Source of the DNA: Escherichia phage vB_EcoM_WFbE185
Sequence record: MK373778.1
DNA length: 64,000 nt
Reading direction: 5' to 3' (one strand)
This document shows, in pieces, positions 12,648-13,103 of this stretch (its first letter is position 1; the number at the start of each line of letters is the position of its first letter). The notes beneath the pieces were generated by a model, which worked only from the letters and a program-made list of their open reading frames with translations, had not been told where the DNA came from and searched no databases. A program made the position numbers and the translations under genes.

Positions 12648-13103
12648 TTATTTTAGATCTTCGGCCCAATCTAGTTTTAAGGGTTCTTTGTATTCACGGT
12701 CGAGAATAACCGGAATAGCTACATCACCACTGAATGATAGTTGGCCAACGTTATATGATAACGTTATATGTGGAGTGTAGTCGTCGAAATCATGAGTAGC
12801 ACCTAAAGCTCGTGCATACTGATGACGACATCTAAGATATTCGGAATCAAGAACTAAAACCAGTACAGCGCCGTCGTCAGTTTTCCATACCTCAAAGTGT
12901 CCTGATTCGGCAATAGAATAACTACCACTGGATGTAGTATATGGTATGTTTACACGTGAATAACAAATTGTTGAATGAAGCTTTTCACGTGGTACTGGAT
13001 TAGGAATTCTTAATTTGCGCTGGAGGTCTTCCAGCGCATCAAGTGTTAATTCCGAAAATTTAGCTGCGACGTAGAGGCCTTGTGAAAAGTCCTCAAATTT
13101 CAT
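12648..13103 (-). CDS. 57B: gp57B, 2H phosphoesterase-like protein
   Basis: two H-x-T/S-x motifs (HSTI, HITL) typical of 2H phosphoesterases; position next to 57A as in T4. Confidence 0.75.

Follow-up and report, generated by a model that had tools for sequence, protein, structure and literature searches.

A gene 57B product of a Mosigvirus-like T-even phage as a probable orthologue of the anti-CBASS phosphodiesterase Acb1

The product of gene 57B of bacteriophage T4 was found by activity-guided fractionation as the 3'3'-cGAMP-degrading enzyme of infected cells and was named Acb1 (Hobbs et al., Nature 2022, PMC9117128). The substrates of T4 Acb1 are immune signals in the form of cyclic di- and trinucleotides, which it cleaves in two steps, with no need for a metal, via a 2',3'-cyclic phosphate to a linear 3'-phosphate; the active site of Acb1 is an HxT/HxT tetrad formed by H44, T46, H113 and T115, and the H44A/H113A form of the T4 enzyme is catalytically dead (PMC9117128). 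Structures of Acb1 from Erwinia phage FBB1 reveal a compact fold of the 2H phosphoesterase type with a U-shaped pocket and a C-terminal lid (residues 145-152), in which Y12, W74, F107 and W147 stack on the bases and E141 contacts adenine N6; the lidded pocket accommodates only cyclic di- and trinucleotides (PMC9117128). Deletion of acb1 from T4 causes a >300-fold replication defect on CBASS hosts and none on hosts without CBASS (PMC9117128), and independent transposon sequencing (HIDEN-SEQ) found 57B/acb1 to be conditionally essential, with depletion on a CBASS host and no requirement on K-12. Expression of T4 57B is middle/late, with activity from ~15 min into infection.

Acb1 also degrades cA3, and an escape from cAAA-using type III CRISPR systems has been proposed as possible (PMC9117128). 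Tevenvirinae that encode Acb1 (Bas35-37) are restricted by the cA3-guarding Panoptes type II system, and inactivating acb1 mutations are carried both by phages that escape Panoptes and by the natural variant Bas43, which has a nonsense mutation. In the case of type I Panoptes, the trigger in T4 is acb2, not acb1. The restriction of acb1 carriers by Panoptes type II implies that the net benefit of acb1 depends on the host.

Several other enzymes resemble Acb1 in fold, chemistry or strategy. The poxvirus cGAMP phosphodiesterases are reported to share the fold, an aligned active site and a lid with Acb1 and to replace acb1 in recombinant phage (Hobbs et al., Cell, summarised in PMC12064943), but they belong to eukaryotic viruses, have an N-terminal lid and target animal cGAS-STING. 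The LigT and 2'-5' RNA ligase 2H enzymes (PF13563) have in common with Acb1 the motif pair (L-HSTI and P-HITL in the protein studied here), metal-independent acid-base catalysis and cyclic phosphate chemistry, yet they act on RNA ends in repair, whereas Acb1 acts on a small cyclic oligonucleotide enclosed by the lid, in immune evasion. Apyc1, AcrIII-1/ring nucleases and poxins follow the same strategy, namely the enzymatic destruction of host cyclic-nucleotide messengers, with unrelated folds (metallo-beta-lactamase in Apyc1) and other substrates (cNMPs, cA4/cA6, 2'3'-cGAMP).

Family assignment and residue conservation of the 57B product

We examined a minus-strand open reading frame of a 64,000-nucleotide stretch of phage DNA (hereafter the window), in which an HSTI and an HITL motif about 70 residues apart had been taken as the signature of the 2H phosphoesterase superfamily. 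Direct reading bears out the open reading frame and both motifs, with the two histidines 69 residues apart (Table 1). The superfamily assignment likewise holds, since the two H-x-T/S-x motifs form the active site and the protein is 64% identical to FBB1 Acb1, which has this fold. The 151-aa translation contains exactly two matches to H-x-[ST]-x; at least two such matches arise in 13.7% of composition-preserving shuffles of the protein, a share that falls to 0.6% if the flanks must be hydrophobic. By itself the motif pair is weak evidence, and the case therefore rests on homology and conservation.

Table 1. Coordinates of the acb1 gene, its motifs and the related features of the window
Feature	Position	Strand	Basis or remark
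acb1 (T4 gene 57B orthologue), 151 aa	12648-13103	-	ATG-start ORF; anti-CBASS cyclic-oligonucleotide phosphodiesterase by homology
First catalytic motif, H43-S44-T45-I46	12966-12977	-	CAT TCA ACA ATT; corresponds to T4/FBB1 H44, T46
Second catalytic motif, H112-I113-T114-L115	12759-12770	-	CAT ATA ACG TTA; corresponds to T4/FBB1 H113, T115
Predicted C-terminal lid, residues 144-151 (FBB1 145-152), including W146 (W147)	12651-12674	-	Alignment to FBB1 and T4 Acb1; by homology only
Gene 57A, tail-fibre chaperone, upstream of acb1	13103-13333	-	Pfam GP57, E=5.9e-23
TATAAATA, T4 late-promoter consensus; candidate late promoter for 57A and acb1	13688-13695	-	Pattern match, inside gene 1
tRNA genes Arg-TCT and Met-CAT	10289-10445	-	2.2 kb downstream of acb1, six ORFs between
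Rnl2 (RnlB) homologue	46447-47442	-	76% identity to T4 RnlB; Pfam RNA_ligase and T4_Rnl2_C

The protein matches the Pfam family PF23474 (Anti-CBASS protein Acb1) with an E-value of 1.8e-58 and 196.8 bits against a gathering score of 27, and the alignment is full-length, residues 8-149 covering profile positions 1-144 of 144. The LigT-type family PF13563 (2_5_RNA_ligase2) is matched below threshold (E=0.012, 16.1 bits against a cut-off of 27) and over residues 69-131 only. Amongst solved structures, the best sequence match is PDB 7T26/7T27, "Acb1" (E=7.9e-59, residues 9-148), the FBB1 protein crystallised in its apo form (7T26) and with 3'3'-cGAMP (7T27), to which the window protein is 64% identical over 140 residues. 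Identity to T4 gp57B (NP_049750.1) is 85%, with lengths of 151 and 152 aa. A scan against NCBIfam matched no family model to the protein, and hence none that names it a ligase. AlphaFold2 prediction from the single sequence gave a mean pLDDT of 39.5 and a pTM of 0.32, too poor for a fold search, and we predict the compact 2H phosphoesterase fold with its C-terminal lid for the window protein from the 64%-identical crystal structure.

All catalytic and nucleotide-contacting residues named for T4/FBB1 Acb1 are kept in the window protein. With a numbering offset of one, the tetrad H43, T45, H112 and T114 aligns with H44, T46, H113 and T115, and the residues that contact the nucleotide are present as Y11 (Y12), W73 (position 74), F106 (position 107), E140 (E141) and W146 (W147), all five identical to those of T4. 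An alignment of 11 sequences with identities as low as 29%, in which the window, T4 and FBB1 proteins were joined by eight further homologues from Serratia, Acinetobacter, Shigella, Aeromonas, Cronobacter, Vibrio and Klebsiella phages, shows no variation in the tetrad, Y11 or E140. T4 Acb1 thus resembles the window protein in its full length, in its slot between 57A and ipI and in its tetrad and contact residues; about 22 substitutions separate the two, none of them at the named functional residues. FBB1 Acb1, which is alignable over residues 9-148, differs from the window protein by an indel of a single residue, located in the beta-hairpin that follows W73, and by conservative aromatic swaps, F and Y taking the places of the W73 and F106 found in the window and T4 proteins.

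The conserved contact residues also bear on the target of the enzyme. The protein could be a member of the Acb1 family whose target has shifted in this phage lineage, mainly to the cA3 of type III CRISPR or to nucleotide signals of another kind, and for which the evasion of CBASS is secondary. The degradation of cA3 by Acb1 and the evasion of cAAA-using type III CRISPR proposed by the authors of that work (PMC9117128) speak for such a shift, as do the triggering of the cA3-guarding Panoptes type II by Acb1-encoding Tevenvirinae and the ~15% divergence from T4 Acb1. Against it, the named substrate-contacting residues, including the adenine-reading glutamate and the stacking aromatics, are identical to those of T4, and the sequence therefore gives no hint of changed specificity. 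We judge a shifted target to be highly improbable; the substrate range of the window Acb1 could nevertheless differ in detail from that of T4 Acb1, given the same ~15% divergence.

The surroundings of the gene place the phage within the T-even group. The flanking DNA is 97-98% identical to that of Mosigvirus-type T-even coliphages, the window protein is 99-100% identical to proteins of many independent isolates, and 1,469 phage records, mostly from Straboviridae, contain a homologue. The closest protein in the BASEL collection is that of AlbertHofmann (Bas47, Mosigvirus), with 99.3% identity. When the published Bas35 acb1 PCR primers were compared with the window, only the primer on the gene 1 side matched, with two mismatches, indicating that the phage is related to Bas35 around acb1 and is not identical to it. 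T4 Acb1 itself comes from a Tequatrovirus, whereas the window phage is Mosigvirus-like.

Gene order, expression and neighbouring features

The order gp2, gp3, gp1 (dNMP kinase), 57A, 57B, ipI is the same in the window as in T4. Its gp3-gp1-57A-57B core recurs in the Serratia, Acinetobacter, Shigella, Aeromonas, Cronobacter, Vibrio and Klebsiella phages, in four of which gp2 is annotated upstream of the core. Adjacency of 57A and 57B was observed in T4 and at seven of the eight diverse homologue loci.

The TAA stop codon of 57A and the ATG start codon of acb1 share one base (TAATG, 13101-13105), an overlap that suggests translational coupling, and the two genes are probably co-transcribed and translationally coupled. 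A match to the T4 late-promoter consensus, TATAAATA, lies inside gene 1 and is a candidate for the promoter that drives 57A and acb1, which would fit the middle/late timing of T4 57B and the ~15 min at which its activity sets in. A scan for sigma-70 promoters across 11800-14900 returned 11 sites compared with 9.0 +/- 2.9 in shuffles, and no reliable promoter for acb1 was found in this interval. The window as a whole has 19 occurrences of TATAAATA, for example at 16098-16120 and 36700-47460 (+), where 8.6 +/- 2.6 are expected, and every shuffle fell short of that number. They form clusters on the plus strand, along the block of structural genes.

Downstream of acb1, the region between ipI and the tRNA genes contains several small minus-strand open reading frames. 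An 87-aa open reading frame without a Pfam match (11951-12214, -) begins with ~18 residues, MKTYKEFIAESQSSTLSE, that are similar to the start of the neighbouring IPI homologue, MKTYKEFISPDANVSTLTE; beyond them the two are unrelated. By the example of T4 IPI, such an N-terminus resembles a capsid-targeting sequence. If this N-terminus does target the capsid, the 87-aa product would be a second internal head protein that is packaged and injected with the DNA, and it is possibly an anti-restriction factor like IPI. Between the tRNA genes and ipI, neither a 171-aa (10525-11040, -) nor a 131-aa open reading frame (11332-11727, -) has a Pfam match. The 131-aa product is only 40% identical to T4 trna.3, compared with 84-86% for its neighbours trna.2 and trna.4, and its gene, in a hyperplastic region, either is evolving fast locally or has been replaced.

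The same region carries three minus-strand copies of a 48-nt intergenic element (11903-11950, 12234-12281 and 12589-12636; relative to the reference copy, the identities are 94% and 65%). Each of them is located directly upstream of a minus-strand open reading frame, namely the trna.4 homologue, an IPI-like open reading frame and ipI. In the two closest copies a sigma-70-like promoter (TTTACA-17-TATAGT with TG) overlaps an 11-12 bp hairpin of -16.6 to -17.5 kcal/mol (z about -5). The hairpin of the third copy, which is situated in the 77-nt gap just past the acb1 stop codon, has -12.5 kcal/mol (z -3.2). The elements look like PeSL (promoter-early stem-loop) cassettes, to which the modular shuffling of genes in T4-type phages has been ascribed (PMC2839356, PMC4122927).

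tRNA repair and the 'RNA ligase' label

The original prediction had interpreted the 57B product as a LigT-like RNA 2',3'-cyclic phosphodiesterase, encoded next to a tRNA/RNA-ligase neighbourhood, with a possible role in the healing of tRNA ends alongside phage RNA ligases. In such a model, broken tRNA ends, for example those left by an anticodon nuclease, would be healed so that a phage RNA ligase can reseal them. Part of this description stands. The two H-x-[ST]-x motifs and the weak match to 2_5_RNA_ligase2 (16.1 bits) are real, tRNA genes do lie 2.2 kb downstream, and the chemistry foreseen is close to that of Acb1, which both makes and hydrolyses a 2',3'-cyclic phosphate; the substrate and the biological role are those that fail. 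Public records and PHROG 755 also name the protein an 'RNA ligase', a label to which we return below.

The neighbourhood itself offers little to a repair function. When T4 RnlA, RnlB and PseT were used as tblastn queries, only RnlB found a match in the window, ~33 kb from acb1, and neither RnlA nor PseT (Pnkp) matched anywhere within these 64 kb. On these grounds we rejected the description of the locus as an RNA-ligase neighbourhood. The RnlB homologue, the sole RNA ligase of the window, adjoins gene 24 and hoc, as it does in T4. In T4, tRNA repair has a dedicated pair of enzymes, RnlA (RNA ligase 1) and PseT, the latter annotated as a 2',3'-cyclic phosphodiesterase; PseT is unrelated to 57B and is encoded ~60 kb away from it (134 kb versus 74 kb). 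The conserved neighbours of acb1 are gene 1, 57A and ipI, none of which are repair genes, whereas the neighbours on the tRNA side vary between phages and some homologue loci have no tRNA within 2.5 kb. Only two tRNA genes make up the window cluster; T4 has eight, together with two small stable RNAs and the gene for the homing endonuclease SegB, and a search of the window with T4 SegB gave no match.

The family and genetic evidence points the same way. The LigT-family score falls below its cut-off, as opposed to 196.8 bits for the Acb1 profile, and no NCBIfam model names the protein a ligase; T4 lacking acb1 grows normally unless CBASS is present, and the lidded pocket of Acb1 takes only cyclic di- and trinucleotides. 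Healing of tRNA ends beside phage RNA ligases is not supported for a gene whose T4 orthologue is the anti-CBASS Acb1 and which has no RNA ligase or polynucleotide kinase gene nearby, and we consider it highly unlikely. An activity on RNA ends is conceivable; Acb1 can hydrolyse the 2',3'-cyclic phosphate of the dinucleotide that arises as an intermediate in its own reaction. We nonetheless regard it as very unlikely that this Mosigvirus Acb1, or Acb1 generally, has a second activity on RNA 2',3'-cyclic-phosphate ends (tRNA fragments or products of host defence nucleases) or a substrate spectrum unlike that of T4 Acb1.

The 'RNA ligase' label is attached to 57B in RefSeq records (for example NC_000866 T4p137 and NC_054940) and in PHROG 755, while most GenBank records give 'hypothetical protein' and, among the records listed, only one gives 'cyclic phosphodiesterase'. 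The label is in conflict with the family evidence and is a mislabel that is propagating; plausibly, the name derives from a family name within the 2H superfamily.

A decayed or inactive copy, kept only through its linkage to 57A and gene 1, can practically be discounted: natural acb1 nonsense mutants do exist (Bas43) and Panoptes escapers do inactivate acb1, but the open reading frame in the window is intact and full-length (151 versus 152 aa), retains all of the catalytic residues and is 99-100% identical to proteins of many independent isolates.

Predicted action of the window Acb1 and its significance

We conclude, with a probability of about 0.93, that the open reading frame in the window is the Acb1 (gp57B) orthologue of a Mosigvirus-like T-even phage and would work as an anti-CBASS phosphodiesterase. 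The identity, orthology, synteny and residue conservation of the gene are established by the present analysis. The chemistry and the phenotype were demonstrated with T4 and FBB1 Acb1 and, by analogy, are expected to apply to the 85%-identical window protein. The gene is thereby an already known one, that of the characterised anti-CBASS nuclease Acb1 and not of a tRNA repair enzyme.

Acting as an Acb1, the window protein would bind the messengers made by the CD-NTases of host CBASS systems during infection, such as 3'3'-cGAMP, cUA, cAAA and related adenosine-containing species. The aromatic residues are predicted to stack on the bases and the glutamate to read adenine N6, while the C-terminal lid would shut over the ligand. 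In the strained ligand, the 2'-OH of an adenosine would then attack the 3'-5' phosphodiester over H43, T45, H112 and T114, giving a 2',3'-cyclic phosphate intermediate whose hydrolysis would yield a linear 3'-phosphate product. Loss of the signal would leave the effectors of CBASS, and possibly also those of cA3-dependent type III CRISPR, inactive; abortive infection would be avoided and the phage could replicate.

This result raises no new mechanism, and its immediate consequence is one of annotation: acb1 should replace "hypothetical protein" and "RNA ligase" on many T-even records. For the biology of phages and their use in therapy, resistance to many CBASS systems, and possibly also to type III CRISPR systems that signal through cA3, can be predicted from an intact acb1, which may at the same time bring sensitivity to Panoptes-type guards that sense the depletion of cyclic nucleotides.
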